A stretch of 64,000 nucleotides of DNA from Patescibacteria group bacterium (lineage in GTDB: Bacteria; Patescibacteriota; Patescibacteriia; Patescibacteriales; BM507). The stretch lies in the NCBI GenBank assembly GCA_027858235.1, contig JAQIDC010000072.1:9499-73498 (forward strand), read 5' to 3'. The notes beneath the pieces are model-generated. The model saw only the letters and a program-made list of their open reading frames with translations. It was not told the origin of the DNA and made no database searches. The position numbers were made by a program, and so were the translations under genes. Below, in pieces: positions 7,165 through 63,460 of the stretch (position 1 is its first letter; every line of letters starts with the position of its first letter).

Positions 7165-7171
7165 ATGTTTT

Positions 7172-7196: not shown

Positions 7197-7205
7197 TTTT
7201 GTGCA

Positions 7206-7496
7206 CTATAGTACTCTCTTTACCTTCACTTGATGATTTTCTAACTCAGGTGCTTGGCTCAAAGCATCCTCTCTTTCGTCATTAAGCCATTGTTCATCTT
7301 TGTCTTCTCTTAGTCCATTTAAAAGTCCTGTCACTTGAGCAGTTGGCTCGACTTGACTTGTATCGACTTCCTGAAGCTGGTCAATATAACCTAGAATATC
7401 TGACAATTGATCACCATACTGTATAAATTCTGCTTCGCTTAACTCAAGACGAGCTAATTTTGCAATATGTTCTATATCTTTTTTCTCTAATTTCAT
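7206..7496 (-). CDS. gatC: Asp-tRNA(Asn)/Glu-tRNA(Gln) amidotransferase subunit C
   Basis: 96 aa. 'IEHIAKLARLELSEAE...LSDILGYIDQLQEVDTSQVEP' is the typical GatC sequence. Confidence 0.9.
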   Translation of the reverse strand: MKLEKKDIEHIAKLARLELSEAEFIQYGDQLSDILGYIDQLQEVDTSQVEPTAQVTGLLNGLREDKDEQWLNDEREDALSQAPELENHQVKVKRVL

Positions 7497-39125: not shown

Positions 39126-39150
39126 TTTTTTTAAATTTTAAATCTTTAAA

Positions 39151-39187
39151 TAGGGTACTCTATAGAGTACCCTATAGAGTACCCTAT
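39151..39187. repeat. perfect 22-bp palindrome plus tandem 12-mer
   Basis: AGGGTACTCTATAGAGTACCCT (39152..39173) is self-complementary. ATAGAGTACCCT is then repeated once more. Confidence 0.6.
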
Positions 39188-39275
39188 TTTTATTTCGATA
39201 TCAACAGGTCATGAATGTGGGAAAGATGGACCTAACCCCAATTATTGTAATTATTTTATATTTTCATAAATATCT

Positions 39276-49159: not shown

Positions 49160-51328
49160 TTACTCCACAAAAACATCTCTCGGTTTATTTTGAATACTTG
49201 GCCCGACCACTCCTTGTTTTTCTAAATTATCGAGTATCCTATTTGCTCTTGGATATCCTATTCCTAGTCTTGATTGAAGCATTGTTGCTGACGCTTTGCC
49301 GGAATCTAGAATCATCTTTCTTGCCTCCTCCATCATGACATCTCCTTCTTCATCTTCTCCTCCAAAATCAAAATCAGACTGCCCTTTCCCTTCGAATTCA
49401 ACTTCATAGTCAGCGACACCTGATTTCTTCTTTATATATCTAACCACTTCTTTTATTTCTGCTTTATCTATGTAAGTTCCTTGTATTCTCACCGGTTTGC
49501 TCATGGCAGAATTGATATACAACATATCACCATGACCGAGTAATTTTTCTGCTCCTGTATGCTCTAAAATAGTTTTTGAGTTAACTGACGATGTCACTGA
49601 AAAGGCCGCTCTAGCAGGTAAATTTGCCTTAATTAACCCTGATAATATATCAACTGATGGTCTTTGAGTGGCTAGGACCAAGTGAATTCCCGCTGCTCTA
49701 GACTTTTGACCAAGCCGGATTATCGCCCCTTCTGCCTCTTTTTTAGAAGTAGATAAAAGGTCACCAAGCTCATCAACCACAACCACCAAACACGGCATAC
49801 TGTCATTTGGTTTTCTTTTATTATAGTCAAGCATATTCTGACAACCCGCTTTGTTTATTATCGTTAGTCTCTTATCCATCTCTTCAACACACCATTGCAA
49901 AGCTCTTATCGCTCTTTTGTGTTCCGTGATAACTGGAGCTATGAGGTATGGAATTTTGTCATACATACTTAGCTCAACTTGTTTTTGATCTATCATGACA
50001 AACTTTAGGTCGTCAGGATTGTTTTGAAACATTAAACTAATTATAAGTGAATGCAAGAAAACGGACTTCCCAGATGCGGTCTGTCCAGCAATTAAAACAT
50101 GAGGCATCTTCACAAGATCATCAAGCCAAACCTTTCCAGTCACATCTCTACCCATAGGAATTATTGTATTTGATTTACGACTAGTAAATACTTTTGATTT
50201 TAAAACTTCCTTCAAACTGACTAATACTTTTGTTTGATTTGGTATTTCAAGACCAACAAAAGGCTTTCCTGGAATTGGAGCTTCGATACGAACTGGGTGG
50301 ACGGCTAGATTCATAGCCAAGTCATCTGCATAAAATTTTACCCTGCTAACAGATATTCCATTAGCTGGCTTGAAAGTGTATTGAGTAATAGTTGGCCCAA
50401 CGGTAACATCCCCCATATTTATAGGAATGCCAAAATCAGCCAAAGTTTGTTTTATAATTTCTTGATATCTAACAATATTTCCACTGGTTGGTTTTTTTGT
50501 TTTGCTTCTCAATAAGTCTAGCGGTATATTTATTTTTAAATTAGTTTTCTTCCAATTAAAATTCTTCTTATCCTTCTCATTCAAATCATGTGATGACGAT
50601 TCATCTGACAACTCAAAATTATTTTCAAGGGAATGCCCCTTGTCGTCTTCTTCAATATCATATTCTTTTATAACCGCTCCCTTGTCATCCTCAAACTCAA
50701 GATCATATCCATCATCCTCAATCCTCTCCACCTTTGTCATTCCGGGTTTAGCCCGGAACACAGAAACAAGGGGATAAAATATTATCCCAAAAAGAAAAAT
50801 TAGCATTCTAAACAAAATACTCCCCTCTCCAATAATATTTGAAAGACTAGTGTTGAGAATCAATATCAAAGATATCAATACCAAAGAAGAAAGAAGCACT
50901 GCACTCACAGGAGAACCGAGATAATCAATAAGTAGTGGCGAAATAGCTGAGCCTAAAATCCCTCCTCCTATTTCAGTATTCCAAAAATACAATAATCCAG
51001 AGATACTAATCAAAAACAGTCCAATCCCAAAAACATTAGCACCATCAAAATCATCGTCATCATTGCGAGCCAAAGCTATAACAGTTAAAAACAATAAAAC
51101 CGGAACACTCCATTTAGCATAACCAAAAAACACACCAAGATAGATACTAGCAAGACTACCTAATTCACCAGCCTTACCCAGATAACCAAACAAACACAAA
51201 AGACCAAGCAACAAAAAAAAGATCAAGAAAATCCCTTTCCTAGCACCACGAGAAAGACTCCAACTTGGAATAAACACCCCAAGAAGTCTTTTAAAAATAC
51301 TTTTTCTTTTTTTCTTTTTTTTAAACAT
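49160..51328 (-). CDS. ftsK: DNA translocase FtsK/SpoIIIE
   Basis: N-terminal TM helices. Motor domain 'LIAGQTASGKSVFL' (Walker A) and 'LVVVVDELGDL' (Walker B). C-terminal gamma wHTH 'ASATMLQSRLGIGYPRANRILDNLEKQGVV'. Confidence 0.93.
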   Translation of the reverse strand: MFKKKKKRKSIFKRLLGVFIPSWSLSRGARKGIFLIFFLLLGLLCLFGYLGKAGELGSLASIYLGVFFGYAKWSVPVLLFLTVIALARNDDDDFDGANVFGIGLFLISISGLLYFWNTEIGGGILGSAISPLLIDYLGSPVSAVLLSSLVLISLILILNTSLSNIIGEGSILFRMLIFLFGIIFYPLVSVFRAKPGMTKVERIEDDGYDLEFEDDKGAVIKEYDIEEDDKGHSLENNFELSDESSSHDLNEKDKKNFNWKKTNLKINIPLDLLRSKTKKPTSGNIVRYQEIIKQTLADFGIPINMGDVTVGPTITQYTFKPANGISVSRVKFYADDLAMNLAVHPVRIEAPIPGKPFVGLEIPNQTKVLVSLKEVLKSKVFTSRKSNTIIPMGRDVTGKVWLDDLVKMPHVLIAGQTASGKSVFLHSLIISLMFQNNPDDLKFVMIDQKQVELSMYDKIPYLIAPVITEHKRAIRALQWCVEEMDKRLTIINKAGCQNMLDYNKRKPNDSMPCLVVVVDELGDLLSTSKKEAEGAIIRLGQKSRAAGIHLVLATQRPSVDILSGLIKANLPARAAFSVTSSVNSKTILEHTGAEKLLGHGDMLYINSAMSKPVRIQGTYIDKAEIKEVVRYIKKKSGVADYEVEFEGKGQSDFDFGGEDEEGDVMMEEARKMILDSGKASATMLQSRLGIGYPRANRILDNLEKQGVVGPSIQNKPRDVFVE

Positions 51329-51470
51329 ATTAGCAATCCCCTCCTTTTATATTCTCCTCTCGAGACAAGGTGAATCGCTACCAAGCGAGAGAGAGTGCCC
51401 TGGGGTAGGAGTACCCGCCAGGGGGAGGTGTGTTAAAAATAGTGTGTAATAGTCCTGCCTTTAAATCAAT

Positions 51471-51527
51471 AAAAAAAGCGACCAAAAGTCTTATCTAAAT
51501 AAAATTTAGACAAAACTTCCAACCGCT
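51471..51527 (-). terminator. intrinsic terminator (23-bp helix + U7)
   Basis: Minus strand: GCGGUUGGAAGUUUUGUCUAAAU-UUU-AUUUAGAUAAGACUUUUGGUCGC followed by UUUUUUU. All 23 positions pair (Watson-Crick or G-U). Confidence 0.75.
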
Positions 51528-51680
51528 TTAACACTAACGTGTAAGTGATGGACAATTATTTCATTCTCGTGTCATTCTGAAGTTAATTCAGAATCCAGAA
51601 AATAATATTCAGTAAAAGGTGCGACTTGCCCCGCTTTGCGGGAAGAAATAAGTGTGCGGCATAACCGCAGGGGAACTTAT
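51471..51680 (-). ncRNA. candidate ~210-nt non-coding RNA or attenuating leader (unclassified)
   Basis: Bounded by a near-consensus promoter and a very strong terminator. Contains only tiny ORFs without RBS. Several local hairpins: AUAAGU..ACUUAU enclosing UGCGG/CCGCA; CCCGC-AAA-GCGGG; AUUCUGAA-UUAAC-UUCAGAAU. The 5' end is estimated from the -10 box. Confidence 0.5.
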
Positions 51681-51686
51681 AATACC

Positions 51687-51714
51687 ATTATAACACAAAT
51701 ATAGCGTTTGTCAA
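51687..51714 (-). promoter_or_regulatory. sigma70-type promoter with extended -10
   Basis: Minus strand: TTGACA-16 nt-TGtTATAAT. The -35 box sits inside the palindrome TGTCAAcaTTGACA. Confidence 0.6.
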
Positions 51715-51739
51715 TGTTGACAGGATTTTTTTCTTTAAA

Positions 51740-51839
51740 AAAAGATGAAATCTAGATTTATCCCGTTAAATTATTTCCATTTAACTGGTATTCATACCGT
51801 GAAACCCTTTTTGTTTAACTGGTACCTGATCCCAATTAC
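51740..51839 (-). repeat. cassette repeat copy 1
   Basis: Plus strand: ...AGATTTATCCCGTTAAATTATTTCCATTTAACTGGTATTCATACCGTGAAACCCTTTTTGTTTAACTGGTACCTGATCCCAATTAC. Ends 2 nt before the stop codon at 51842. Shares extra flanks (AAAAAGATGAAATCT / AATTAC) with copy 2. Confidence 0.9.
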
Positions 51840-51841
51840 TT

Positions 51842-52678
51842 TTATTTCTTAGTTAACACCAAAACATCTTGATCCATTTCTTCCCCTTCCTGGACTTCTT
51901 TATTTAGAAGCCCCTTCCAATCTCCTAAATATATCTCAAACCCGTGAGCTTCGGCTAATTCTTTTATTTTATCAGCTGAATGATAATATTTAACAGTTTC
52001 GGCTCCCTCAAGATATCCCGAGTTTGGCTCACCAGAAATTTTGAAAAGTTTAACAGTAAAATTATCGCCATCTTTTAAGATCTTTATCTTATTATCGGAA
52101 AACAGCTCACCGTTATATAGATATCTGGCATTGGTTGAATAGCTTTTTAGTTCTGGGCTTAAATTCCCCATCGTAGCTACCAATTTTCCTTTTTGTTTTA
52201 ATTTTTTTGATAATAATTCAAACAAGGCATCAAGATTGTCTAAATGATCAATAGTGTATTTCATGATGCTGATATCAAGCTTCTCATCATCCAGTACACG
52301 CAAATATTCTAAAATATCACTTTTTATAAAGCTTGTCACTTCTTTGCGCTTTTCATATTCTTCTGTTTCCAAATACTTCTTAGCCAATTCAAGCATATAG
52401 GAAGATACATCCACCCAGTCAATGTGACCTCTGGGTTCGTTCAGTAGCTTGGCAAAAAATTCATGATATCTGTCCGGATGAGCACCTCCGCCCAGCTCAG
52501 CTGAATATACAGGTCTATCTAACTCTTTCGTTTCTTGCATTATTATCCCATCAACAATTTGAGCTACTCTAAAATTTTTGTCGTTCTGTTCAAGCTCAGC
52601 AAATTTTTCTGCTATCTCGGGAGAGAAATACATACCTAGCCCTTCTTTTTTATTTTGATTTATTTTTTCTTGATTCAT
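51842..52678 (-). CDS. class I SAM-dependent methyltransferase (cassette A)
   Basis: 'VYSAELGGGAHPDRY' (motif I, ExGxGxG-like) and 'IDWVDVSSYMLELAK' (motif II). Confidence 0.65.
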   Translation of the reverse strand: MNQEKINQNKKEGLGMYFSPEIAEKFAELEQNDKNFRVAQIVDGIIMQETKELDRPVYSAELGGGAHPDRYHEFFAKLLNEPRGHIDWVDVSSYMLELAKKYLETEEYEKRKEVTSFIKSDILEYLRVLDDEKLDISIMKYTIDHLDNLDALFELLSKKLKQKGKLVATMGNLSPELKSYSTNARYLYNGELFSDNKIKILKDGDNFTVKLFKISGEPNSGYLEGAETVKYYHSADKIKELAEAHGFEIYLGDWKGLLNKEVQEGEEMDQDVLVLTKK

Positions 52679-52705
52679 ATCTTTATTTTTAATATTTTTT
52701 TTATG

Positions 52706-52806
52706 AAAAAGATGAAATCTAGATTTATCCCGTTAAATTATTTCCATTTAACTGGTATTCATACCGTGAAACCCTTTTTGTTTAACTGGTACCTGACCCC
52801 AATTAC
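52706..52806 (-). repeat. cassette repeat copy 2
   Basis: Near-identical to copy 1, including the extended flanks. Lies 6 nt after the stop at 52813 and 27 nt before the start at 52678. Confidence 0.9.
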
Positions 52807-52812
52807 CTTCAA

Positions 52813-53679
52813 TTAACTCTTCATATCATTTTCCAGTTGATTCTCCCAGTTTGGAATAATTTTTTTCATTTTCTTTTGCCAATCTGGTGGAATGCTAGCA
52901 TGACGGATAAACAGAAGCTGCGGATCTGGAATTGAATACATAACATCATAAAAAGCCGTTGTCCCTGATCCCGCTACTCCATTGCTTGATTTCCATTTTC
53001 CGAGTTCTGACAAATCCTTATTTGTATAATTGCAAATAGCTAGATTTGTCATTCCTTCATTAAATCTTTTCAGGACATAAAGAGATATGGCTGCCAACTT
53101 TTTTGCTGAATTTTTGTAAACATTGAATGGAACGAGTCGAAAATACCAATTAAGAATATAATGAGCAATTGAGTCAACATTCTGATCTCTTGCATCTTTT
53201 TCCATCTCATCAGTAATTCCTTGTTTTTTAAGTATTTTTTCAATCTCAATAATTCTTTTATTTGACTCTTCTTCAATATTCACTAAATACTTATCAATTT
53301 CTATATGAGCACTATAAAGAAGCTCGACAAAGGCCTTATAGTCAGTTGGTTGTTTCATTCTACACTCATGTTTTGACAAATCAACACCATACAAGAAACG
53401 AGAAACGGGCTCACCGTTTGGCATTATGTTTACATAGTAACTTGAAAAAACCTGGAAATCCCTCACGTAAGGGTTTAAATCATCATAAACCTTTAAAGCA
53501 CCTTTAGCAAATATTTTTTTAACACTATCAAGAAAAGCTTTTTCTGATATTTGAATATCAGTAAACATTAACAACCTCTCAATATCATTAATATCTTTTT
53601 CATCCAAAGCAAAACTACTCGCTGTCTTGCAAAACCTATTCCTTGCGGAACTATATAATTTTTTTAATATTATTTCCAT
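52813..53679 (-). CDS. hypothetical protein (cassette B)
   Basis: 288-aa ORF filling the interval between copies 3 and 2. No motif recognised. Confidence 0.5.
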   Translation of the reverse strand: MEIILKKLYSSARNRFCKTASSFALDEKDINDIERLLMFTDIQISEKAFLDSVKKIFAKGALKVYDDLNPYVRDFQVFSSYYVNIMPNGEPVSRFLYGVDLSKHECRMKQPTDYKAFVELLYSAHIEIDKYLVNIEEESNKRIIEIEKILKKQGITDEMEKDARDQNVDSIAHYILNWYFRLVPFNVYKNSAKKLAAISLYVLKRFNEGMTNLAICNYTNKDLSELGKWKSSNGVAGSGTTAFYDVMYSIPDPQLLFIRHASIPPDWQKKMKKIIPNWENQLENDMKS

Positions 53680-53726
53680 AAGACATATATCTTAATTTAA
53701 TTTATATATTATTTAAACAAAAAACA

Positions 53727-53840
53727 AGATTTATCCCGTTAAATTATTTCCATTTAACTGGTATTCATACCGTGAAACCCTCTTTGTTTAACTGGTATTC
53801 ATACCGTGAAACCCTCTTTGTTTAACTGGTACCTGACCCC
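53727..53840 (-). repeat. cassette repeat copy 3 (with internal 34-nt tandem duplication)
   Basis: Same unit, but AACTGGTATTCATACCGTGAAACCCTCTTTGTTT occurs twice. This gives three TTTAACTGG half-sites at 53753, 53787 and 53821, 34 nt apart. Confidence 0.9.
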
Positions 53841-53925
53841 CACTAGCTTTTCAGCTAATATTCAGATATTTTAAATATTCTAATTGACTTATAATAAAAA
53901 TATGTAATATTATAAGTATCAAGAT

Positions 53926-53969
53926 AAAAGGGTCGCTGAAGCTGTGAGGCAGATGGCCCCCTTTTTTTT
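53926..53969. terminator. GC-rich hairpin flanked by A-run and T8 (bidirectional terminator shape)
   Basis: AAAA-GGGTCGCTGAAGCTGTGAGGCAGATGGCCCCC-TTTTTTTT. The T8 is on the plus strand and a T4 on the minus strand. Confidence 0.45.
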
Positions 53970-54010
53970 ATTCTCTTTTAATCTTATTTTTTAAATTCAA
54001 AATTCAAGAT

Positions 54011-54364
54011 TTATTTAATTTCTTTTTTAAACATTTCTCTTACTAAGTTATCAAAGTCTTTATTTTTCTTCCATATAATTTTCATTTTATCATATGTTTT
54101 ATCAAAACCCATATATGGTTTAAATTCTTCTGTTCCTTTGTATTTAGCTATTTCTCTCCAATATTTTTCATTCTCCAAAAGCAAATTAAACGCCTCAGTG
54201 AATTCCCAAAATAGCCGGTCATTATCATGGCATTCTTTTGGTTCTAACTTATATTTCTTCTCAAGATAGTCATAAGTAATAAAATGTAACATTTCATGAG
54301 CAATAACAATATTAGAAGAACCCGGTTTATTTATTGGAAATGAAAACTCTTTTTCTTCTATCAT
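54011..54364 (-). CDS. HExxH zinc-metallopeptidase-like protein, probably 5'-truncated
   Basis: 'IVIAHEMLHFITYD' HExxH motif. The reading frame stays open for 42 codons upstream of the ATG without any start codon. Confidence 0.45.
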   Translation of the reverse strand: MIEEKEFSFPINKPGSSNIVIAHEMLHFITYDYLEKKYKLEPKECHDNDRLFWEFTEAFNLLLENEKYWREIAKYKGTEEFKPYMGFDKTYDKMKIIWKKNKDFDNLVREMFKKEIK

Positions 54365-54531
54365 TCTTGGATAAACTTCTAGAATAGAAGCACTCCCCGT
54401 ATATTCACCTTCTGGCCAATCATAACCTTTGAATATTCTATCTACTTCTTTTAGGAAACTACCCTCTACTTCCTTCCATCTCTCGTTGGCTTCATTTAAC
54501 TTTAGCTCAAAGCTATCGTTGTTTTTTTTAT

Positions 54532-54708
54532 ACTAATCAAATATAAAATTTTTCGCCTCCTTTTCAATTTTCTCTTTTTCTTTATACTTTTCTAGATATT
54601 TCAAATCAGAAAGAATAGCCCTGTTGTCCTCCTCTAAAAAAGAAAGAAAAAATCCTAAATCATCTTCCTTGTTTAAAACTAAATTTAATTTTGGTTTTTT
54701 ATTAGTCA
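54532..54708 (-). CDS. small ORF (58 aa), possibly the detached N-terminus of the HExxH gene
   Basis: Not in the track. MTNKKPKLNLVLNKEDDLGFFLSFLEEDNRAILSDLKYLEKYKEKEKIEKEAKNFIFD*. Ends at a TAG, in a different frame from 54011..54364. Confidence 0.3.
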
Positions 54709-54748
54709 TATTAAAGATTACTTTTTATAAAAGTCTTTCAATGCAAGA

Positions 54749-54846
54749 AACAAGATTTGACCACGTTAATCTGTTAAAAAAGGATAAAAGCTAGACCTCG
54801 TATATTAACTTTTAAAAGCCTGAAAAATGGATCAAAACCCTTTTAC
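54749..54846 (-). repeat. decayed copy of the cassette repeat
   Basis: AAACAAGATTTGACCACGTTAAT...TCAAAACCCTTTTACTA retains the two ends of the unit (AAACAAGATTTATCCCGTTAAAT...GAAACCCTCTTTG). It sits exactly at the 3' end of ORF 54846..55472. Confidence 0.4.
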
Positions 54847-55472
54847 TACAATTCTTCATTAGTTTTAAACCACCAATCAAACTCATCGGAATATTTTTTG
54901 ACATTCCTATTGAACCAATCTGACATTTTAAAAGCATCAAGTGCCCCTGGGAAACTATTTTTAGCTTGAAATGGTCTACTCCACTTATCTTCATCTAATC
55001 CGAGTCGAATAGCTAGAATATAATGCCTAATGCCTTGATTATCCAAAGGGTTTGCTCTCAAAAGTTTTCTAAATATAAACAAAGCCTGTTCAGTCTTCCC
55101 TTTTCGCCAGCATAAAAATCCATAGGCTTCAATGACTCTCATAAGATGACGATTTTCCAAATAACCCCAACGCAATTCTTTTGGCCAATTTCCATCTTTA
55201 TCAACTATTTTCATTAATGCTTTTGTATAAGCAGCCTGTAACAGCTCATCCGCCTCCTCTACCCTATTACTATGAGACAATATATCAGCCAAGCTGATAT
55301 AAGAATCAAAAAAATATTCATCCACCTCAATAAGTCTTCTCAACTCAATCTCCACTTCATTATCAGACATTTCGCTCTCGTAAATATCGTAAAAATCATC
55401 CATTACTTCATGGTGATTATCATCAACAAATTCTTTTAGTTGTTTTTTTCGCAATGAATTTTTGATTTCCAT
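54846..55472 (-). CDS. hypothetical helical-repeat (TPR-like) protein
   Basis: 208 aa. Segments such as 'EQALFIFRKLLRANPLDNQGIRHYILAI' look TPR-like. No catalytic motif. Confidence 0.5.
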   Translation of the reverse strand: MEIKNSLRKKQLKEFVDDNHHEVMDDFYDIYESEMSDNEVEIELRRLIEVDEYFFDSYISLADILSHSNRVEEADELLQAAYTKALMKIVDKDGNWPKELRWGYLENRHLMRVIEAYGFLCWRKGKTEQALFIFRKLLRANPLDNQGIRHYILAIRLGLDEDKWSRPFQAKNSFPGALDAFKMSDWFNRNVKKYSDEFDWWFKTNEEL

Positions 55473-55799
55473 AGTTTTCTAAATTATTTTTTATACAAAA
55501 TTTATTTAAATACAAAACTTTAATTTAAAGTTCGAGACTTGCTCCGATTATAGTCAATAATTTCACCAAAAATAATCTCAGCACAGCCAGAACCTAATTT
55601 GAATATAAGGTGAAGAAGGTGCATTGCGGATGCAAATGAGGCCGGCCTGGGTCGTACGGAAGCAGAGAGGGTGCTCTGGGGTGCTTTTCGGACATTTCTG
55701 TCCTCAATTTTTCTCCTTGTTATATATTTTTTAATCTATATTATAATCATGGTTATAATATAGATTACTTTTTATTGAAATTTACTTATTCAAAAAACA

Positions 55800-55879
55800 A
55801 GATTTATCCCGTTAAATTATTTCCATTTAACTGGTATTCATACCGTGAAACCCTCTTTGTTTAACTGGTACCTGACCCC
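55800..55879 (-). repeat. cassette repeat copy 4
   Basis: AGATTTATCCCGTTAAATTATTTCCATTTAACTGGTATTCATACCGTGAAACCCTCTTTGTTTAACTGGTACCTGACCCC. Confidence 0.9.
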
Positions 55880-55880
55880 A

Positions 55881-56041
55881 GGAGTCACTTGCGTCTTGAG
55901 TTGTTTAATAAAAGCACGTTCCAGTTCTGCTTCGCTTTAACAAGAAACACTATCCTGAACTCGGTCTGCATGTCTTCGGTATTCAGCGACAACTGTGCTG
56001 TGAGAATTTTCCGCAACTAGATTGTATTTATTGTATGACAT
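55881..56041 (-). pseudogene. hsdR: 5' remnant of a type I restriction enzyme R-subunit gene (hsdR), cut off at repeat copy 4
   Basis: Minus-strand translation: MSYNKYNLVAENSHSTVVAEYRRHADRVQDSVSC*SEAELERAFIKQLKTQ.. This matches the HsdR N-terminus pattern (...ESNNFIVLDKY........YQSE.DLER..I..L..QGY). It has an in-frame TAA where YQ is expected, and the homology ends at the repeat. Confidence 0.6.
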
Positions 56042-56078
56042 ATTTCATAAATTTTATAATTACATTACATCACATTTT

Positions 56079-56957
56079 CTAATCTTCTTCTTCATAATAA
56101 TAAGAGTAGTCTATTCCTTTCATAAACATTTCACGATTGTTAATTTTACTAGTAAGAGCATTTTTAAATAAATTTTTTATTTTTATACTATTTTTGGAGC
56201 TATGTGTCATTGCATTTATATAATCTTTTTTGCCTATTTTACTCCACTCCACACATTTTTTAAGGCTTTTTTTCAATATTAAATCAAGCCAAATACGAGT
56301 ACTTCTTCCATTGCCTTCCATGAAGGGATGAGCGACATTCATTTCTACATATTTATCGGCAATTTGTTCAAAATTATTTTCAGGCATTTGTTCAATTTGT
56401 TTAAGCGTGTTTTCTAAATATTGTGCCATCGCAAATTGAAAACCATTTTTTGAAATATTTTTCTGTCGTATTTTTCCTGCAAAATTATACAAACCGCCAA
56501 ATAAATAAGCATGAATTTGTTGCAAGCCCTTGGTTGTGCCGATTTCAATGCTATTAATAAGAGAACTTTCAAACAAGGCATAAGCTTTTGTTTTACTTTT
56601 TCCATCGATACTCTCATCACCATGAATAAACCAGTCAATAAATCGGTTAGCTTTAGTCCCGGGGAATGTTTTACCTAGGGCAATAATCCCGTCATAGTCT
56701 AACGTATCAGTTAAATATCGTTTCCCATCACTTGCCAAAAGTTTCAGTTGGGTAGTAGCACTAACCACCTGACTGTTCTCTTTCTTGAGCTTGGCTTTGA
56801 GATATTTCCAATAATTGCGGGCTTTGGCGTAGTCGTCTTGATCAGTGAGAACGGCGATGATGTCTAACACACTAAACCACCATTTATTATTTTTTTCATC
56901 CCAAACGGCACGAACTTCTCGATCGTCAAAGAAACGAATTGAAATTTTATGATTCAT
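56079..56957 (-). CDS. Bro-N-like DNA-binding domain fused to a Fic (AMPylase-type) domain
   Basis: N-terminal '[31 protein letters not shown]' (Bro-N/antirepressor-like). C-terminal '[14 protein letters not shown]' = Fic motif HPFx(D/E)GNGRxxR. Confidence 0.8.
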
Positions 56958-56993
56958 ATTTTTTAAAAGTTAATAATTTTACCTCGATAATAT

Positions 56994-57254
56994 TCATATT
57001 GCTTCTTTCTCATAGCAAGCCCTGCATTTAACTGACTTTTCAATAGAACTTCGGTGTCCTATTGGTAACACCCAAAAAAAACCATCAATCGAACCCCATG
57101 CTTCCGCTGGCATTTCGTAATCTATTTCTGCACTTAGAGGCTCAAAATCGATACAAAAAGTTTGGATCCGTTCTCCTTCACTTGTATAATGCGCTGGCAT
57201 TTTTCTTCTAGCCGTATAAACAAGGTGAAGTGTTTTCCTTAAAATTTCATTCAT
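56994..57254 (-). CDS. hypothetical 86-aa protein downstream of the AbrB-like gene (toxin candidate by position only)
   Basis: ORF starts 35 nt after the AbrB-like stop. No motif recognised. Confidence 0.4.
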   Translation of the reverse strand: MNEILRKTLHLVYTARRKMPAHYTSEGERIQTFCIDFEPLSAEIDYEMPAEAWGSIDGFFWVLPIGHRSSIEKSVKCRACYEKEAI

Positions 57255-57289
57255 AATATTTTTATAAATAATCCTTTGGTGTCATATTT

Positions 57290-57448
57290 TTATTTCCAAT
57301 CCTCAATAATTATCTTCTTCCCACTCCGACGTATTGTTAATTTTTGTCTTTCCCTTATTTTCAACTCGGAAACAATATCAGCAGGGATAACAACAGACAA
57401 ACTCCTCTGCCCAACACGAGTAACTTTTCTAATATATTTTTTTATCAT
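57290..57448 (-). CDS. AbrB/MazE/SpoVT-type DNA-binding protein (antitoxin-like)
   Basis: Not in the track (52 aa): MIKKYIRKVTRVGQRSLSVVIPADIVSELKIRERQKLTIRRSGKKIIIEDWK. 'VGQRSLSVVIPADIV..L.I' is the swapped-hairpin barrel signature. The plus-strand ORF 57276..57485 is its antisense artefact. Confidence 0.7.
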   Translation of the reverse strand: MIKKYIRKVTRVGQRSLSVVIPADIVSELKIRERQKLTIRRSGKKIIIEDWK

Positions 57449-57457
57449 ATTTTTCTT

Positions 57458-57481
57458 GTTACGTAACATGCTACGTAACAG
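57458..57481 (-). promoter_or_regulatory. operator-like paired palindromes just upstream of the AbrB-like gene
   Basis: GTTACGTAAC (57458..57467, perfect palindrome) and CTACGTAACAG (57471..57481), 10-33 nt upstream of the start codon. Confidence 0.4.
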
Positions 57482-57601
57482 ATAATTTCAAATTATTTTT
57501 TCACTATATAATACTTGGTAATCTATCTATACTATACTCTTAATTCACAATTCCGGATCCAAATCACCCTATCAACTACCTCTTTAAAAACTTATTCCAT
57601 G

Positions 57602-57949
57602 TCACCGTTTCTTTAAATAACCATCAATTCTCCCTCTATCTTCATTCTCTTTATCCCCTTTAAAATACACTTCAATAAATTCAATACTTATTAACTCAAA
57701 ACGACTACAATCCTTATTACAAGAGTATATAATTCGTAGGGAGCTCTTTTTTAAGCTTTTAGAAAACAGTCTTGCCTTAATTATTAGCAAGTCATCAGTT
57801 TTGGTTAAAATATTGGAATGTCTTCCATTGCCGAAAGGAAATTTTTTTAAAATATCTTTAAACAATTCAATATCATCTTTCAGAGTTTTAAATTTCTTTG
57901 AAAGTTTTTTAAAGTCTTTTTCAAATTCTTTTGTGCAACTATAATTCAT
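57602..57949 (-). CDS. small toxin candidate (RelE/ParE-superfamily-like) paired with the Panacea antitoxin
   Basis: 115 aa, overlapping the upstream antitoxin gene by 11 nt. The 'FEKDFKKLSKKFKTLKDDIELFKDIL' N-terminus and beta-rich C-half are reminiscent of RelE/YafQ-type toxins. The assignment is weak. Confidence 0.4.
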   Translation of the reverse strand: MNYSCTKEFEKDFKKLSKKFKTLKDDIELFKDILKKFPFGNGRHSNILTKTDDLLIIKARLFSKSLKKSSLRIIYSCNKDCSRFELISIEFIEVYFKGDKENEDRGRIDGYLKKR

Positions 57950-58712
57950 CCTCGTAATTTCTTACGGAATGATCATTGTCGCGATAAAAGACAGATTCAT
58001 ATCGAATCTTCTCACCATCTTCATGTATCATCCATGGTGTATCAGTATGTGAATAAGCACTTAACTCTTTGGCAGATTTGCCTGCAAGACGAGATAAAAC
58101 ATCATCGATATGTGATGTCTCCTGAGCTGACAAATTCTTTAAGTTGGCGGACTTTAAGGGTAGATATTTTTTTTGCTCGTACTGAAAATGTTTTGACTTT
58201 ATCATTTCTAGTTCACCATCTTTCTGCATTTTATCAACTATTTTTTTAAACTCCACTGGCGTTGGACCGTAATGATTTTTTATATAAGTTGCGCCCATTA
58301 AGTTTTCTTCAAACTTCTCGTAATAATCAAAATCAATAAAATATAGAAGTTTGTAAACAACTGTCTCTCCAACGTTTGGTTTTGCTCCAACTTTCTCTAA
58401 TATATAAAGTAGAACTTGTTTAAACTTTTTCAAATCCTTCTCCTCAACACGAATCTCAATATCTTTGTTAGATTTCTTCTTTTTACTCTCTATTATTTTA
58501 ACTTTTACAGATTCTTCCCTGTTGGCTAAAAGATCCTGTAAGCTCATCCCAAAAAGTCTAGACAATTTCTCCGCTTCAGATATCCTGAGTTCAGTCTCAC
58601 CATTCTCAATCTTTTCATAGGTTGGTCGAGAGACTCCAATTTTCTCTGCAACAAAAGACTGGCTAAAGCCATTCTTTTTTCTTAACTTTTGGACAAGTAG
58701 ATGCTTAATCAT
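57939..58712 (-). CDS. XRE-family HTH + Panacea (DUF4065/SocA-like) domain antitoxin
   Basis: 'LRKKNGFSQSFVAEKIGVSRPTYEKIENGE' HTH_XRE. 'VVYKLLYFIDFDYYEKFEENLMGATYIKNHYGPTPVEF' DUF4065 core. Confidence 0.8.
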   Translation of the reverse strand: MIKHLLVQKLRKKNGFSQSFVAEKIGVSRPTYEKIENGETELRISEAEKLSRLFGMSLQDLLANREESVKVKIIESKKKKSNKDIEIRVEEKDLKKFKQVLLYILEKVGAKPNVGETVVYKLLYFIDFDYYEKFEENLMGATYIKNHYGPTPVEFKKIVDKMQKDGELEMIKSKHFQYEQKKYLPLKSANLKNLSAQETSHIDDVLSRLAGKSAKELSAYSHTDTPWMIHEDGEKIRYESVFYRDNDHSVRNYEDEL

Positions 58713-58740
58713 AAATTTAAACTATTTTTCCTATGACAAT

Positions 58741-58769
58741 ATTATACATAATGTAAAATATTTTGTCAA
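58741..58769 (-). promoter_or_regulatory. consensus sigma70 promoter of the Panacea TA operon
   Basis: Minus strand: TTGACA-17 nt-TATAAT (rc of 58764..58769 and 58741..58746), ~30 nt upstream of the start at 58712. Confidence 0.6.
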
Positions 58770-58929
58770 TATCAATGTAATATTTATTTACATATTAACC
58801 TATCAACATTAGAAAATTATTAAACCCTATTTTTCTTGATTGCTCAACCTCATCAGAGATTTTCTACCTCCTCATAAATATTTAAACTACAGCTAGTTTA
58901 TCTATATTATAATCACAATTCACAATTTA

Positions 58930-59009
58930 AGATTTATACCGTTAAATTATTTCCATTTAACTGGTATTCATACCGTGAAACCCTCTTTGTTTAACTGGTA
59001 CCTGTCCCC
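58930..59009 (-). repeat. cassette repeat copy 5
   Basis: AGATTTATACCGTTAAAT...GTTTAACTGGTACCTGTCCCC. Followed by a C10-T8 homopolymer junction running into the methyltransferase stop codon at 59022. Confidence 0.9.
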
Positions 59010-59021
59010 CCCCCCTTTTTT

Positions 59022-60269
59022 TTATATAAAATCTCTTAATGCTTCTCCTATTTTTTTCACAACCCCAACAACAAGAGCATTCCCCATAATATAGGCTCTC
59101 TTCGTGTCTGGGACACCTTCTGTGTGGTTATCTGGAAACATATTTAATCTCTCTAATTCTATCGGAAGTAATCTTCGTAAACGTCCATTTTTTATTTTAA
59201 TTACATGCTTAAATCTTGAAGGGGATGACCCTCCTTCTCCTGTAACAATTGTTCGAGATGCGTTATTCAAATTATCAGGAAAAATCATTCCACCTTCAGA
59301 ATAGTTATACTCAAAACCATCTTTTGTTTTTCTATTTTCAGTTTTCCCATTTTTTAAATATTTCCAACGCTCAAGGGTGTTTTTCTTAATAAAAAACTCT
59401 TCTGGCACCTCTTTATCATTCACAAGAACGTCTTTTAACATAATCTTTTTACCATCATACTTTGAAGTTACTTTTTTTGTATAAATTTTACTATTAATCA
59501 TTATCCCTGCGTTATGGAAAGGACTAATTTTTGGAGAATCGCTAGAAAAATCCCTTGAAACAATAGCAGGGTCTGCATCTAGAGTAAAAAAATCAACTTC
59601 AACATCATCCTTATTAACAGGGAAACCAGATGCTATTATGCCTTTTGAATTTATCCATTCTTTAGGATTTGTATTTTTAGCTTCTTTATATGCAGTGGTT
59701 CCTTTTTTGTAGGCTAAAATAAAAACTCGTCTTCTTCGTTGAGGAAAACCATATTCTGCTGCATTAATTATTCTCCATTCTACAATGTACCCCAAAGAAG
59801 CTAAAGATGAAAGCATTACTGCAAAGTCTCGTCCTCTTTGTTTAGTTGGAGATTTAAGAAGTCTATCAACATTCTCTAACAATAAAAAATTAGGTGAGTT
59901 TTTACCACTTTTTTTCAAAATATTAAAAATAGACCACCACAAAACACCCTTTTTACCAACTAAACCGTTTGCCTGATTTGCTGTACGTGCAACAGAATAA
60001 TCCTGGCAAGGAAAACCACCGACCAATAAATCGTGTTGTGGTATTGTCTTAAATTTGCTTTTTACAACAAGCTGAATATCTTCACAAGAGTGACCCTCTG
60101 TACCAAAACGTTCTTTATATATATCTGAAGCATGCTGAGTCTTTGTGCTTGGCTCCCATTGGCTATTCCAAACAGTTTGATATTTAATTTTCTTATTACT
60201 TGCTTGGTCAAGGCCTATTCTAAAGCCTCCAACTCCCGCAAATAATTCAACTACTTTTATTGTTTTCAT
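59022..60269 (-). CDS. DNA (cytosine-5) methyltransferase, M.Sau3AI-like
   Basis: Motif I 'ELFAGVGGF', motif IV 'GGFPCQDYS', motif VI 'LLENVDRLL', motif VIII 'QRRRRVFIL', motif X 'GNALVVGV'. Confidence 0.9.
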   Translation of the reverse strand: MKTIKVVELFAGVGGFRIGLDQASNKKIKYQTVWNSQWEPSTKTQHASDIYKERFGTEGHSCEDIQLVVKSKFKTIPQHDLLVGGFPCQDYSVARTANQANGLVGKKGVLWWSIFNILKKSGKNSPNFLLLENVDRLLKSPTKQRGRDFAVMLSSLASLGYIVEWRIINAAEYGFPQRRRRVFILAYKKGTTAYKEAKNTNPKEWINSKGIIASGFPVNKDDVEVDFFTLDADPAIVSRDFSSDSPKISPFHNAGIMINSKIYTKKVTSKYDGKKIMLKDVLVNDKEVPEEFFIKKNTLERWKYLKNGKTENRKTKDGFEYNYSEGGMIFPDNLNNASRTIVTGEGGSSPSRFKHVIKIKNGRLRRLLPIELERLNMFPDNHTEGVPDTKRAYIMGNALVVGVVKKIGEALRDFI

Positions 60270-60326
60270 ATTTTAAAAATTACTATCTATATAATAGCAA
60301 AATTATCAATTTTGATCAAATTTTAA

Positions 60327-61736
60327 CTAACTTATATTTTCTAACACTTTTTGAATATATTTTGCATTCAACCAAAAAGATTTTTTCATCTCTTGCGTTC
60401 CTTGGGGTGTTTCAGCGGTATCCCTAGAATCTTTTCCATGTGGGCGCACATGTGCCACGTCATTATCACTAATCTTTGGTAAGTCCTCATATCGGTCTTC
60501 ATTTATACAATCAATTGTTTTATTCCAGACATCCTCTGCTTCAGACATGTCTTCTATGGGAAAATTCCAAAACAAAAATTTCTTGAATACAATTTCTTCA
60601 CTGCCCTTTTGTTTTTGAAATACAGCAAATAAAAATCGCTTTGTTTCTAGTTGCGCGTGAAATTCACTCATTTCCTCCTCTTCTTCGTCATACCAAACTT
60701 GCGTTACTAAATCCTTATAGTCAAAAGCAGGGAACGACAATGATTCTGTAAGTACTCCAGTGTGTTCCAAGGTAATTGCCTTAAGTGTAATATTCGCTTT
60801 TTCTAACTCTTCAATCCTATTTGATTTAACTCCAAGCATTCTGTTTACCAATAATCGTTTCCATTGTTTTGGTTCTTTCTTAAGATCCCATTTTACAGCT
60901 TTCTTTATTTCGGTATCAGTTTTTCCAATGAATTGTGCAAATTTTTCTTTCACAACGTCTTCAACAGTAGCCAGCCGTCGCTTTTTTTTAAAGATTGACT
61001 CAGTGCTAATATCTTTTCCAAGCAACTCTTTTTGGATTAAGAAATTAAGATATTGTTGTTTAAAAGAAAAAGCTCTTGGCTTAGCAGGTGTCCTCGCCAT
61101 AGGCTGGTCGCGCACAACTCTACTATTTGCAGCTTTCGTGCAAGCTCCCAAGTAATATGTATCTCCTTCAGACAATAAATGTGCCTCTCCTCGTTTTATT
61201 TTTCCAACAATATATTCCCAGTCTTTTTGTATTTGGTAAATATCTTCCTCGGAAATATCATCGAGTAAATCAAGTAAATGCACAAACTTAAATTTATAGT
61301 CTAGGATGTCTTGCTCTTTAAGCCACAGATAGAACATTAACAAAAGAACTTTGTTCTTCTTGAGAAATGAGCTTGTCTCCCACGATTCATTAATCACCTC
61401 ATCATAGTTAATCATTGAAAAAACAAGTCTTTCCTTTGAAACATATTTTTTCACCGCATGCGCTTTGAGTGGGTTTGTCTTTAATTCTATTCCCGCAATT
61501 TTGAAATCTGCCTCTGCTCTATTATTAACATCCAAACCAAATACAAACTCTTCCACCAACTCACCGAGAAGACCCTTTCTTCGGCTTCCATATTTCAAAA
61601 GTCTTTGCTCAATTTCTTCTAGGTCAACTCCATCGTCAGACATTACTGAACGCAAAGATCGCCCAAGAATTTTTTGAGCTTCGGTAAGTACTGATTCTTT
61701 TGTGGTGTATGTTTTAGTCATTATTACTCTTTCCAT
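60327..61736 (-). CDS. Sau3AI/MutH-family type II restriction endonuclease
   Basis: MutH-type catalytic block 'EADFKIAGIELKTNPLK' (D...E.K), 'SKERLVFSMINYDEV', 'EAHLLSEGDTYYLGACTKAAN', and a C-terminal 'HVRPHGKDSRDT'. Length ~470 aa, as for two-domain Sau3AI. Confidence 0.8.
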   Translation of the reverse strand: MERVIMTKTYTTKESVLTEAQKILGRSLRSVMSDDGVDLEEIEQRLLKYGSRRKGLLGELVEEFVFGLDVNNRAEADFKIAGIELKTNPLKAHAVKKYVSKERLVFSMINYDEVINESWETSSFLKKNKVLLLMFYLWLKEQDILDYKFKFVHLLDLLDDISEEDIYQIQKDWEYIVGKIKRGEAHLLSEGDTYYLGACTKAANSRVVRDQPMARTPAKPRAFSFKQQYLNFLIQKELLGKDISTESIFKKKRRLATVEDVVKEKFAQFIGKTDTEIKKAVKWDLKKEPKQWKRLLVNRMLGVKSNRIEELEKANITLKAITLEHTGVLTESLSFPAFDYKDLVTQVWYDEEEEEMSEFHAQLETKRFLFAVFQKQKGSEEIVFKKFLFWNFPIEDMSEAEDVWNKTIDCINEDRYEDLPKISDNDVAHVRPHGKDSRDTAETPQGTQEMKKSFWLNAKYIQKVLENIS

Positions 61737-63460
61737 TTTTTAATAATCTCTTCAAACTGAACTTCTTTCCATTTTTCTTTCCATTTTTCTAAATATTTCA
61801 CATCATTTGATGATGGCTGTCTGTCTTCATCACATTTTTCTATTTTAACCAAAGAAGGCATTATAATTGATTCTCCAAGTAAAAGACCCTCGCCAGATTG
61901 TAATGACGGCAAATTATCAATCAAATTTCCAAGTGTGTCAGGCAACAATCTTTTCACATAATTTTGATCGGTTGGATTTGTTAGCCTCATGGCAATGAAA
62001 TTATTACATTGAGAAAAAATAGTTTCTGATATTTCAGATGGTCTTTGGCTCACAATTCCTAGTGTTACTCCATATTTTCTTCCTTCTTTAGCTATTCTTT
62101 CAATAGCATTTCTAGATGCTCTAAATTTTGCAGAATCATTTTTGGGCACATACTTATGCGCTTCCTCATACACAAGCAATAATGGAGTTTCTAAATCAAT
62201 ACCATCATTTAAATATTTTTTATAGAAATATCCATAATCGAACAGTATTCTTGAGATTAAAGAAACTGTAATACTAAGAACTTCAAAAGGAACCCCACTT
62301 AGATCAATGACTGTTACATTCGATTTATTGGCATCTTTATATCCAATAAATTGTTTAATAGCATTTTCAAAAGAAATACTTTTTGAATTATTCCCTAATA
62401 AAAATTCAAATCTCTTGTCATTTAATTTATTTTCTAATCTACTTACAAAATTTGTTAATTGTCCGTACAAACTTCCTTGCACTGTTTTTGGCTGACCTTT
62501 TTTGACACCAGAGGCATATACCTCCCCTGTATCAATAGTTTCATTATTTTTATTTTGAGCAAACTCCAAAACTTTTTGAATATCAAATGGAACAGGAGAA
62601 TCATAATGGATTTTCTCCTTTCTGTTGCTAAATGCTTCATCGCTTTCATCTTTTTCCGATATTAAGCCGTCTTTTTTATTAATTACGATCGATTCCTTAA
62701 AAACATTTTTTTGATTGTGGTCGTTAGCTTCTGTATCAATAAAAAGTTCTTCTAATTCTTCACTATTAAGCAACCAGTAAGGCAGGGTCAGATTGTTAAT
62801 ATTCAAAAAATTAGCCTCTGGGAAAGCTGTTTTGTATTCATTGTGAATATCAAATACGACAATATGAGAGTTATTTAATTCAAATTCACCATTTTTCTCT
62901 GCGATAGCTTTTTGTATAATTTTAGCGATCGTATGTGATTTTCCTGAACCGCTGGATCCGACAATTGCGAAATGCTTATTAAAAAATTTATTTCCATTTA
63001 CTGGAACCTCAATATTTCCATCTTGAACTAATTTTGCAAATAAGAATTTCTCTTCTGGCTTAAATCCATTTTCATAAATTAATTTTATATTAGCCTCACT
63101 TGCTGGCTTAACTTCTGTAGGGGGGATAGTTAAAGCATCACCACCTCTTACAAATTTTTCATCAGTAATCGTACCAAGCGGGCTGGCTTCAAGAACATAA
63201 GCATTGTAGACCTCTTTTACCTTGCTTCCTTGACCATCTTCAACGACTCTTTCTTTAAGTTCTATTTGGTAACTTTCAATAATAGCAATAAGCACGCACC
63301 CGTCATTGTCAGAAATTTCAAGATAAGACCCAATTTTTAGATCTCCAAGAGCATCATCTATACTATCTTTAAAAGCCGTCAAATTTTCGACTTCGATTTT
63401 TACTTTGTTAGGATAAACAGAAGTTACAAAGGCTAATTTTTCATCTGTAGAATTTGGCAT
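61724..63460 (-). CDS. herA: HerA-like (DUF87) hexameric ATPase
   Basis: N-terminal HAS-barrel-like segment. Walker A 'IVGSSGSGKSHT', Walker B 'LLLVYEEAHKYVP', and 'RKYGVTLGIVSQRPSEISETIFSQCNNFIAMRL'. The stop overlaps the endonuclease start by 13 nt. Confidence 0.85.
   Translation of the reverse strand: MPNSTDEKLAFVTSVYPNKVKIEVENLTAFKDSIDDALGDLKIGSYLEISDNDGCVLIAIIESYQIELKERVVEDGQGSKVKEVYNAYVLEASPLGTITDEKFVRGGDALTIPPTEVKPASEANIKLIYENGFKPEEKFLFAKLVQDGNIEVPVNGNKFFNKHFAIVGSSGSGKSHTIAKIIQKAIAEKNGEFELNNSHIVVFDIHNEYKTAFPEANFLNINNLTLPYWLLNSEELEELFIDTEANDHNQKNVFKESIVINKKDGLISEKDESDEAFSNRKEKIHYDSPVPFDIQKVLEFAQNKNNETIDTGEVYASGVKKGQPKTVQGSLYGQLTNFVSRLENKLNDKRFEFLLGNNSKSISFENAIKQFIGYKDANKSNVTVIDLSGVPFEVLSITVSLISRILFDYGYFYKKYLNDGIDLETPLLLVYEEAHKYVPKNDSAKFRASRNAIERIAKEGRKYGVTLGIVSQRPSEISETIFSQCNNFIAMRLTNPTDQNYVKRLLPDTLGNLIDNLPSLQSGEGLLLGESIIMPSLVKIEKCDEDRQPSSNDVKYLEKWKEKWKEVQFEEIIKKWKE

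Follow-up and report, generated by a model that had tools for sequence, protein, structure and literature searches.

A modular inverted-repeat element at module boundaries in two accessory islands of a Patescibacteria genome

A modular inverted-repeat element in a 64-kb window of a Patescibacteria genome can be set beside several described systems of repeated sites. In integrons, the attC site is a single imperfect hairpin of 57-141 nt, in which an R'' box (RYYYAAC) on the 5′ side pairs with an R' box (GTTRRRY) on the 3′ side, with inner L boxes and extra-helical bases. The res sites of small serine resolvases (Tn3/γδ), 60-130 bp long and in direct repeat, are made of several subsites with inverted arm pairs of ~12 bp; the subsites have spacers of 4, 10 and 1 bp, and the sites lie next to the resolvase gene. 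The chromosomal dif site lies at the terminus of replication, where both the GC skew and the strand of the genes change, and Neisseria intergenic mosaic elements (NIMEs), which are dRS3/RS mosaics, are thought to promote recombination near accessory genes. It has been reported that most clusters of attC sites lacking integron-integrases (CALIN) have no recognisable intI pseudogene nearby (PMC4889954), and that dif is a 28-bp site in which a 6-bp centre lies between an 11-bp XerC arm and a conserved 11-bp XerD arm (PMC6449649). Bacterial interspersed mosaic elements (BIMEs) are described as composite structures of regularly spaced repetitive extragenic palindromic (REP) sequences, and REPs as dispersed, with more than 100 copies per genome (PMC2817692).

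The window is a stretch of 64,000 nt from contig JAQIDC010000072.1 of a Patescibacteria group bacterium. The extent read here is 82.8 kb of JGI scaffold Ga0534205_000027 (96,374 bp; sample 3300051640; a Patescibacteria metagenome-assembled genome), from -9363 to 73459 in window coordinates, in which negative values lie to the left of the window start. The element is confined to two accessory islands, where it stands at the boundaries of gene modules, and it is mosaic in its parts. It is neither an integron attC nor a Xer dif site. Literature searches gave no paper that connects arrays in the candidate phyla radiation (CPR)/Patescibacteria with integrons, attC sites or repeats of a similar kind, and the element appears to be undescribed. 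These bacteria have tiny genomes with defence and toxin-antitoxin (TA) islands, and how such islands are assembled is poorly understood. The element is a testable handle on this question, being a short mappable sequence for which an enzyme can be sought by co-occurrence and junctions in reads.

Anatomy and copies of the element

The element is composed of a left motif GGGGTCA(G/C)G, n tandem units of 34 nt (n = 0-4), the pentamer TCT(T/A)(G/A) and one of three tails, namely R1 (AATTGTGAATT), R2 (TTTTTTG(C/A)AT) or R3 ((A/C)TTTCATCYTTTTT). Each unit has a 5′ arm of 12 nt, T(A/C)CC-A-GT(T/G)AA(A/G)(C/T), a purine-rich spacer of 7 nt (e.g., AAAGAGG, AAAAAGG, AAAGATG or GGAAATA), an inverted arm of 11 nt, (A/G)TTT(A/C)AC-GG(G/T)A, and a linker of 4 nt (TGAA, TAAA or CAGG). 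The 5′ arm always carries one extra base, which is A, or T in one distinct unit. In total, 22 intact units are found in 12 complete elements, and there are additional partial elements. The three tails occur in free combination with unit numbers from 0 to 4 and with various left contexts, and in the unit-less form GGGGTCAGG is followed directly by TCTTG. Since the outer motifs resemble decayed arms, the element is best viewed as consecutive units whose outer edges have eroded. The first-pass annotation had described a conserved repeat of ~80 nt; what is repeated is instead a 34-nt inverted-repeat unit, present in variable number (0-4), with decay at the edges of the run.

Covariation was counted over the 14 distinct units. 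Arm pairing holds in 90% of cells, and three arm pairs have changes on both sides; the closing pair is CG six times, UA six times and UG twice. Of 500 shuffles, about 12-13 reached this level of covariation. Since the arms all resemble one another, other pairings are equally possible, either of a 3′ arm with the next 5′ arm across the linker or as nested long hairpins. As single-stranded DNA (ssDNA), copies with 2-4 units fold better than shuffled sequences on both strands (z = -2.2 to -6.3). The RNA fold of a 2-unit element is unremarkable against shuffles (z = -0.3 to -1.9).

Array 1 occupies 51725-59012, and its copies are read on the gene strand (minus). There are five occurrences of the 46-nt core CCGTTAAATTATTTCCATTTAACTGGTATTCATACCGTGAAACCCT in the window and no more, at 51763, 52730, 53736, 55809 and 58939, all on one strand; the expected number in shuffled sequence is 0, and no further match appears in the window at up to three mismatches. 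Repeat detection and an nhmmer profile return the same five copies, so the five near-identical copies listed at these places in the first-pass annotation are confirmed. Complete copies of array 1 have two or three units. c2 is 95.7% identical to c1 over 116 nt, and c3 has one additional 34-nt unit, which is its first unit duplicated. The "decayed copy" that had been placed at 54749-54846 exists as a degenerate copy, c4, with narrower limits: its homology covers 54741-54764 and a tail down to 54705, it has no units, its nhmmer match is marginal (E = 2.5), and 54770-54846 has no relation to the element. Two partial copies (53975-54014 and 57519-57560) are added to the list. c6 is the outermost copy, and none follows in the next 14.4 kb. 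Copies resemble their neighbours most closely (c1 and c2; c3, c4 and c5), and this likeness, along with unit variants specific to each array, points to local exchange or concerted evolution.

Array 2 lies on the same contig at -8553 to -4170, ~56 kb from array 1 and to the left of the window. It has seven complete elements, with n = 0, 1, 0, 0, 3, 3 and 4, and one truncated element. Its units are diverged, mostly TCCCAGTGAAAT...ATTTCACGGGA, with compensatory changes in the arms. Within each array two or more co-oriented sites separate cassettes, as in integrons, and the two arrays are mutually inverted. Thus, the single orientation on the 3′ side of minus-strand open reading frames (ORFs) noted at first holds for array 1; it fails for array 2, in which all copies are inverted relative to array 1 and also relative to their own genes. 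A module of 108 nt, cccgcccgaaacgccgtgaacgaattaaattgaaagaacgtg, is also present in four copies in array 2. Other small palindromic families, GTCATTCTGAA..TTCAGAATC and GTCATTGCGAG..GCAATC, are found at window 51570-51607 and at L043 15640-15730, 17510-17556, 19224-19270 and 12085-12160.

A second JGI assembly shows this arrangement with 100% identity. In three additional runs, the Logan unitigs end within copies, and ends of unitigs or contigs at such places are expected of any multi-copy sequence. Since the second assembly has the same arrangement and the unitigs are consistent with it, an assembly artefact is excluded. The scaffold holds a gap of 100 N within a repeated module (L043 12274-12373), which the sister assembly (L044) bridges with 68 nt.

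Islands, modules and relatives

All 12 complete copies and the partial ones fall within two TA/defence islands of ~12 kb in total. Profile and pattern searches found none in the other ~71 kb of the extent read, which includes 51 kb of core genes, 59-73.4 kb and the rest of the left flank. The first-pass annotation had stated that the core genes lack the repeat, and had named genome-wide scatter behind such genes as something that would refute its reading; in the extent read, both searches agree with the statement, with 0 copies.

Copies mark almost every boundary between functional modules in both islands (Table 1). Towards ftsK, array 1 runs through the Dcm-MutH-HerA operon, c6, the HTH-SocA gene with its 115-aa partner, a partial copy, the MazE, 86-aa, Fic and hsdR remnant group, c5, the TPR gene and c4. 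It goes on with the 58-aa ORF and HExxH remnant, the half copy, an ORF-less segment of 170 nt, c3, the 288-aa gene, c2, the methyltransferase gene, c1 and the ftsK promoter. Copies begin 2-12 nt past stop codons, and 27-47 nt separate their ends from the following start; these distances had been given correctly, as had, for the most part, the cargo. Pfam assigns FtsK, an S-adenosylmethionine (SAM) methyltransferase, TPR, Fic/Bro-N, MazE, HTH with SocA/Panacea, Dcm, a MutH-like nuclease and HerA, and the HExxH and hsdR remnants are visible by direct reading of the sequence. The genes of array 2 are three AbiEi/AbiEii pairs, HTH_11, NYN and MazE (L043 11022-20543, about -9363 to 0), and one copy there begins 6 nt past the stop of the HTH_11 gene in the opposite orientation. 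Two-gene TA operons are never split internally by copies.

Of the hsdR gene, ~55 codons remain, and the truncation falls exactly at c5. The 288-aa gene has only three homologues (64-67% identity), located in other Patescibacteria defence islands (L045 3852-4888, L047 3941-5003, L046, L048), and all three directly follow a 56-aa MazE/AbrB-type gene; here, c3 occupies that position. Because its homologues each follow such an antitoxin gene, the 288-aa protein is probably an uncharacterised toxin that has no partner here. In array 2, a 350-nt ORF-less segment is tandemly duplicated, and a unit-less copy stands between the duplicates. From these three cases, the copies coincide with rearrangement breakpoints. 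The 288-aa homologues were also considered as a sign that site and gene travel together, and this was rejected, since all three are without the repeat nearby.

The element was not found in genomes whose FtsK is 66-87% identical. Defence islands are present in these relatives too, of different content, immediately upstream of the conserved promoter and leader of ftsK, so that the position next to ftsK is an island or integration hot spot. Among close relatives, the repeat is specific to this lineage. In one relative (L037 1-10000), the island beside ftsK holds a restriction-modification system, a helicase and, 10 kb away, a large serine recombinase. Another (L038 1-13330) has bacteriophage exclusion (BREX)-like genes, SNF2, a MmeI-type methylase and NERD, and a Xer-like integrase directly downstream of ftsK. 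A search for a dif-like palindrome near the xer gene of the relative gave nothing resembling the units. Perfect 11-7-11 palindromes with the spacer TCAAAAA at L038 9994-10022, spanning the ftsK start codon, and at L039 3162-3190, intergenic, are unrelated to the units.

Outside these relatives, a metagenome scan found the identical hairpin, ACCAGTTAAAT-N7-ATTTAACGG (also written CCAGTTAAAT-N7-ATTTAACGG), in a non-CPR organism with an NtrC-type sigma-54 activator. The same organism carries several copies of GGGGTCAGRCCTTGYTTT, the unit-less form, although this motif was absent from the search pattern. The context is an array of small TA-type genes (PBECR2 nuclease with DUF2283, and AbiEi). Chance is unlikely to account for the sharing of two motifs in similar gene contexts, and this sharing suggests that the element is part of a horizontally spread system. 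No recombination breakpoint was seen at the hairpin in this organism, whose contigs differ, not at the hairpin itself. Apart from this organism, the JGI metagenomes gave one chance match inside an Arenibacter gene, the unit-hairpin pattern had only 4 chance matches in GTDB representatives, and IMG/VR (three patterns) and PLSDB gave no match, on which ground a phage or plasmid origin was rejected. In the non-CPR contig Ga0208905_1000164 and others (L019 1-6658, L011 1-1400, L017, L012, L016, L018, L021), the hairpin lies inside an inverted-repeat element of ~165 nt. This array has tandem GGGGTCAGGCCTTGCTTTATGCG repeats as well, and the AbiEi protein of the organism is found on many contigs of only 1-4 kb.

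Table 1. Copies of the element in array 1 and the genes and modules beside them (window coordinates).
Feature	Coordinates	Strand	Remarks
Copy c1	51725..51841	-	Left motif GGGATCAGG 51833-51825; 2 units 51824-51757; TCTAG + tail R3 ATTTCATCTTTTT; between methyltransferase stop and ftsK promoter
Copy c2	52692..52808	-	Left motif GGGGTCAGG; 2 units 52791-52724; TCTAG + tail R3
Copy c3	53700..53845	-	GGGGTCAGG; 3 units 53831-53730; TCTTG + tail R2 (TTTTTTG)
Half copy	53975..54014	-	Right end only, ATAAA then TCTTGAATTTTGAATT, R1-like; directly 3′ of stop of 117-aa HExxH remnant
Copy c4	54705..54770	-	Unit-less, degenerate; GTGGTCAAA then TCTTGTTTCTTGCAT (54764-54741) + tail homologous to c5 tail
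Copy c5	55752..55885	-	GGGGTCAGG; 2 units 55870-55803; TCTTG + tail R2; left motif adjoins truncated hsdR remnant
Partial copy	57519..57560	-	Tail R1 AATTGTGAATT.. without units; between HTH-SocA/115-aa pair and MazE/86-aa/Fic group
Copy c6	58898..59012	-	GGGGACAGG; 2 units 59000-58933; TCTTA + tail R1; starts 12 nt past Dcm stop
ftsK, first core gene beside the array	49160..51328	-	Pfam FtsK
ftsK leader/core boundary	51479..51714	-	Consensus sigma-70 promoter 51714-51687; long hairpin with T-run 51525-51479; both kept in a relative
SAM-dependent methyltransferase, 278 aa	51842..52678	-	Pfam
288-aa protein module	52813..53679	-	No Pfam match; homologues elsewhere follow MazE-type antitoxin gene
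Broken HExxH gene (117-aa ORF + upstream fragment) + 58-aa ORF	54011..54709	-	Read from sequence
TPR protein, 208 aa	54846..55472	-	Pfam
hsdR N-terminal remnant ..SEAELERAFIKQLKTQ	55880..56043	-	Pseudogene with in-frame stop; ends at c5 left motif; read directly, and assigned to HsdR by its N-terminal motif
MazE/AbrB-type 59 aa + 86-aa ORF + Fic/Bro-N 292 aa	56079..57469	-	Pfam
HTH + SocA/Panacea antitoxin-type, 257 aa, + 115-aa partner	57602..58712	-	Pfam; own consensus promoter 58769-58741
Dcm methylase, MutH-like nuclease, HerA ATPase operon	59022..63460	-	Upstream of c6; no repeat on far side

Several other features were seen along the way. The ftsK leader has a perfect sigma-70 consensus promoter followed by a 20-bp G·U-rich hairpin and a T-run, with no Rfam match. 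Both are kept in L037 (9770-9985), whose FtsK is 75% identical, and the hairpin may be a leader, an attenuator or a small RNA. A GC-rich motif, ACCCCAGRGCACYCTCTCT...TTCACCTT (minus strand), is found upstream of ftsK (51340-51432) and of the TPR gene (55590-55700), and also has no Rfam match. Perfect palindromes at 39148-39189 and ~70092-70118 share 25-27 nt and are probably bidirectional terminators of one type. Among core genes (gatC and an amidase gene) lies a gene for a small bAvd/23S_rRNA_IVP protein (~6980-7320; L043 3857-4201), and the copy number of a 55-nt tandem repeat near it (L043 6791-7122) differs between the two JGI assemblies.

Enzyme searches and rival explanations

Recombinases were searched for in the 82.8 kb with phmmer, using XerD, IntI1, γδ resolvase and IS608 TnpA as queries (approximate sequences) against ORFs of at least 60 aa at E ≤ 0.1. 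The search detects the integrase of L038 (3e-8 with IntI1, 1e-10 with XerD), which serves as a positive control. No tyrosine or serine recombinase was found, in agreement with the precomputed Pfam assignments of the called genes, and there was no intI match with either IntI1 or XerD. Thus, the linked recombinase that had been proposed as a check did not appear in this extent. IS608-type TnpA also gave no match, a weak test because the query is approximate and has no positive control. For attC, a crude scan of our own looked on both strands for complementary R''/R' pairs 45-190 nt apart that are paired in the minimum-energy DNA fold (dG ≤ -8); it found attC_aadA7 (approximate sequence) as a control and 0 candidates in the 82.8 kb, which agrees with the first opinion that the site is not a canonical attC.

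Other known classes of repeats were considered and rejected. CRISPR repeats are separated by unique spacers of ~26-40 nt; here, the units abut with only 4-nt linkers and the copies are separated by whole genes. Type III TA systems have tandem repeats of ~34-45 nt directly upstream of a conserved endoribonuclease toxin gene on the same strand. A ToxIN-like system does not fit, as the downstream genes are mutually unrelated (methyltransferase, 288-aa, TPR, HTH-SocA, ftsK) and those of array 2 run the other way. A fragment of a tRNA, tmRNA or other RNA gene serving as an att site is not supported by ARAGORN or Rfam near either array. Rfam 15 gave no match at E ≤ 1 in 51300-59100 and array 2, and the sole match in the window at gathering thresholds is tRNA-Ser at 4182-4265. 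Intrinsic terminators were not flagged by a terminator scan, the stems being weak and AT-rich with no T-run directly after them. The target-recognition element of a diversity-generating retroelement is contradicted by the lack of a reverse transcriptase and of any template/variable repeat pair, and by unrelated ORFs upstream.

We tentatively regard the copies as recombination-prone joints of a cassette-like array, whose units are probably bound by an enzyme encoded elsewhere, and give this reading a little less than an even chance. DNA segments would be joined, duplicated and deleted by recombination at the copies, which would yield the cassette-like islands. The 12-7-11 unit has the size of a recombinase core site, or of a bulged hairpin such as integron integrases and HUH enzymes recognise, and its enzyme would most likely be encoded elsewhere in the genome. 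The number of units would change in 34-nt steps by unequal exchange, with the edges decaying into unit-less forms; the exchange may be site-specific or merely homologous. A wider claim is rather unlikely in our judgement: an undescribed gene-cassette system, present in Patescibacteria and at least one unrelated bacterium, which would use 12-7-11 units as sites for an enzyme encoded elsewhere and shuffle TA/defence modules. Several observations weigh against recombination at the copies. Besides the searches for a recombinase and for TnpA, which gave no match, close relatives are without the element, and no gain or loss of single cassettes was seen. All five samples with the organism contain the same strain with the same order, and for this reason no strain-level variation is visible. 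Mismatches affect arm pairs 2-29 and 8-24 in roughly half of the distinct units, and a variable number of units is unusual in a dedicated recombination site. Orientation relative to the genes differs between the two arrays, and the same intergenic regions also contain the other small palindromic families, one of which interrupts a unit. Of the cassette-capture system first proposed, co-oriented accessory/defence modules split by one element are observed, but neither a recombinase in the 82.8 kb nor cassette gain or loss, so that capture as such is still what we infer.

The main rival is a selfish repeat of REP/BIME type or of the type of miniature transposable elements with inverted repeats (MITEs), whose hairpins multiply themselves through an enzyme of the HUH/REP-associated tyrosine transposase (RAYT) type or by slippage and are tolerated in dispensable DNA. 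It would have no role in gene capture, rearrangements being a by-product of homology, and we consider it possible though somewhat unlikely. Imperfect palindromes of variable tandem number, regularly spaced with a period of 34 nt and 0-4 units per copy, are what is found in BIMEs, described as such REP composites (PMC2817692). Sites just past stop codons in either orientation, the mixture with other small palindromic repeats, the folding of multi-unit ssDNA and the lack of a linked recombinase are in line with it, and absence from close relatives suggests a recent, perhaps still young, selfish expansion. However, there are 0 copies behind ~45 core genes in 51 kb and 12-16 copies in ~12 kb of islands, whereas REPs are normally dispersed with more than 100 copies per genome (PMC2817692). 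The units carry conserved flanks and tails along with them, copies are found where a gene is truncated, an operon split and a segment duplicated in tandem, and no Y1 transposase was found on the contig, although this is a weak test. Alternatively, the copies may be binding arrays for a regulator or nucleoid protein, acting as operators, insulators, weak bidirectional terminators or mRNA stabilisers between TA/defence modules. Arms of 11-12 bp spaced by 7 and 4 bp in variable tandem runs look like multi-operator arrays, the islands are rich in HTH and AbrB/MazE proteins, and the location between transcription units holds in both orientations. Yet the terminator scan was negative, the RNA fold of two units is no better than shuffles, and truncated or split genes at copies, the near-identity of copies beside unrelated cargo and the same motif pair in an unrelated organism are left unexplained, which makes this account improbable.

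A CALIN with atypical attC sites, that is, an integron cassette array without a nearby integrase, would agree with co-oriented modules of ~1 kb, tight ORF packing, the presence of TA modules and of modules with no ORF, and the lack of a good promoter in two modules. The arm motifs GTTAAAY and RTTTAAC fit GTTRRRY and RYYYAAC, and one 140-nt element of the unrelated organism (L019 2230-2369) passes the crude attC test. A missing intI is no obstacle in itself, since most CALIN have no recognisable pseudogene of it close by (PMC4889954). Even so, we hold this to be very improbable: the heptamers stand in the reverse of their attC order, the scan gave 0 candidates with its control found, the copies are 0-4 short hairpins and not one imperfect hairpin of 57-141 nt, no intI was found, and array 2 is inverted relative to array 1 and to its own genes. 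Least credible of all is a chromosomal dif beside ftsK with tandem Xer-dependent elements, as in arrays of integrative mobile elements exploiting Xer recombination (IMEX) or dif modules. Here the adjoining ftsK, the closeness of 12-7-11 to the 11-6-11 of dif, the islands of relatives at the same spot and the Xer-like integrase directly downstream of ftsK in one of them would be accounted for. GC skew, however, is -0.05 to -0.27 throughout the window (near -0.2 around the array), and the minus strand carries the genes flanking the array on either side, as far as 14 kb past it; with no switch of either, the locus is not at the replication terminus. A second array stands 56 kb away, the arms are unlike the dif consensus, GTTAAAT is at the inner and not the outer end, and dif itself has 28 bp with a 6-bp centre (PMC6449649). 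No xer gene was found on the contig in the 82.8 kb searched, and the ftsK islands of relatives are without the element, so the place of the array beside ftsK, noted in the first-pass annotation, is put down to a hot spot and not to a mechanism of dif and FtsK.

If the element belongs to a new cassette system, it would be a functional analogue of integrons and dif modules in ultra-small genomes. If it is merely a selfish hairpin, it would still be a new repeat family, one that breaks short-read assemblies exactly at island boundaries.

Comparison with known systems

The locus shares with integrons and CALIN the co-oriented modules of ~1 kb, each with a tight ORF or TA pair and a conserved imperfect palindrome, the occurrence of ORF-less modules, and near-identical sites within one chromosomal array; an adjacent integrase is not required there either. 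It differs from them in having no R''-L''...L'-R' architecture, no intI found, 0-4 short units of 34 nt, one array inverted relative to its genes, and one copy that truncates a gene. Acinetobacter plasmid dif (pdif) sites and IMEX are alike in that small accessory or TA modules are bounded by inverted arms around a centre of 6-7 bp, and a housekeeping enzyme acting in trans would be a further likeness. A dif or pdif site stands alone, with 28 bp in an 11-6-11 layout and a conserved XerD arm; on plasmids, successive sites point in opposite directions. In the element described here, by contrast, the arms are unrelated to dif and asymmetric by one base, the centre has 7 bp, and the units are tandem, chromosomal and not at the terminus. 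With res sites, the element has in common adjacent subsites of paired inverted arms of ~12 bp, a span of 60-130 bp and direct repetition. It departs from them in its constant spacer of 7 bp and its changing count of subsites, and no resolvase gene was found nearby. Enterobacterial BIMEs and REPs share with the element a mosaic build from short imperfect palindromes, regularly spaced and variable in copy number, a location at gene 3′ ends or between operons and a mixture with other motifs, and the NIMEs of Neisseria have the same mosaic likeness. REPs are GC-rich, genome-wide and alternating in orientation, whereas the element described here is AT-rich and directly repeated, stands in two islands, and has conserved outer motifs and tails.

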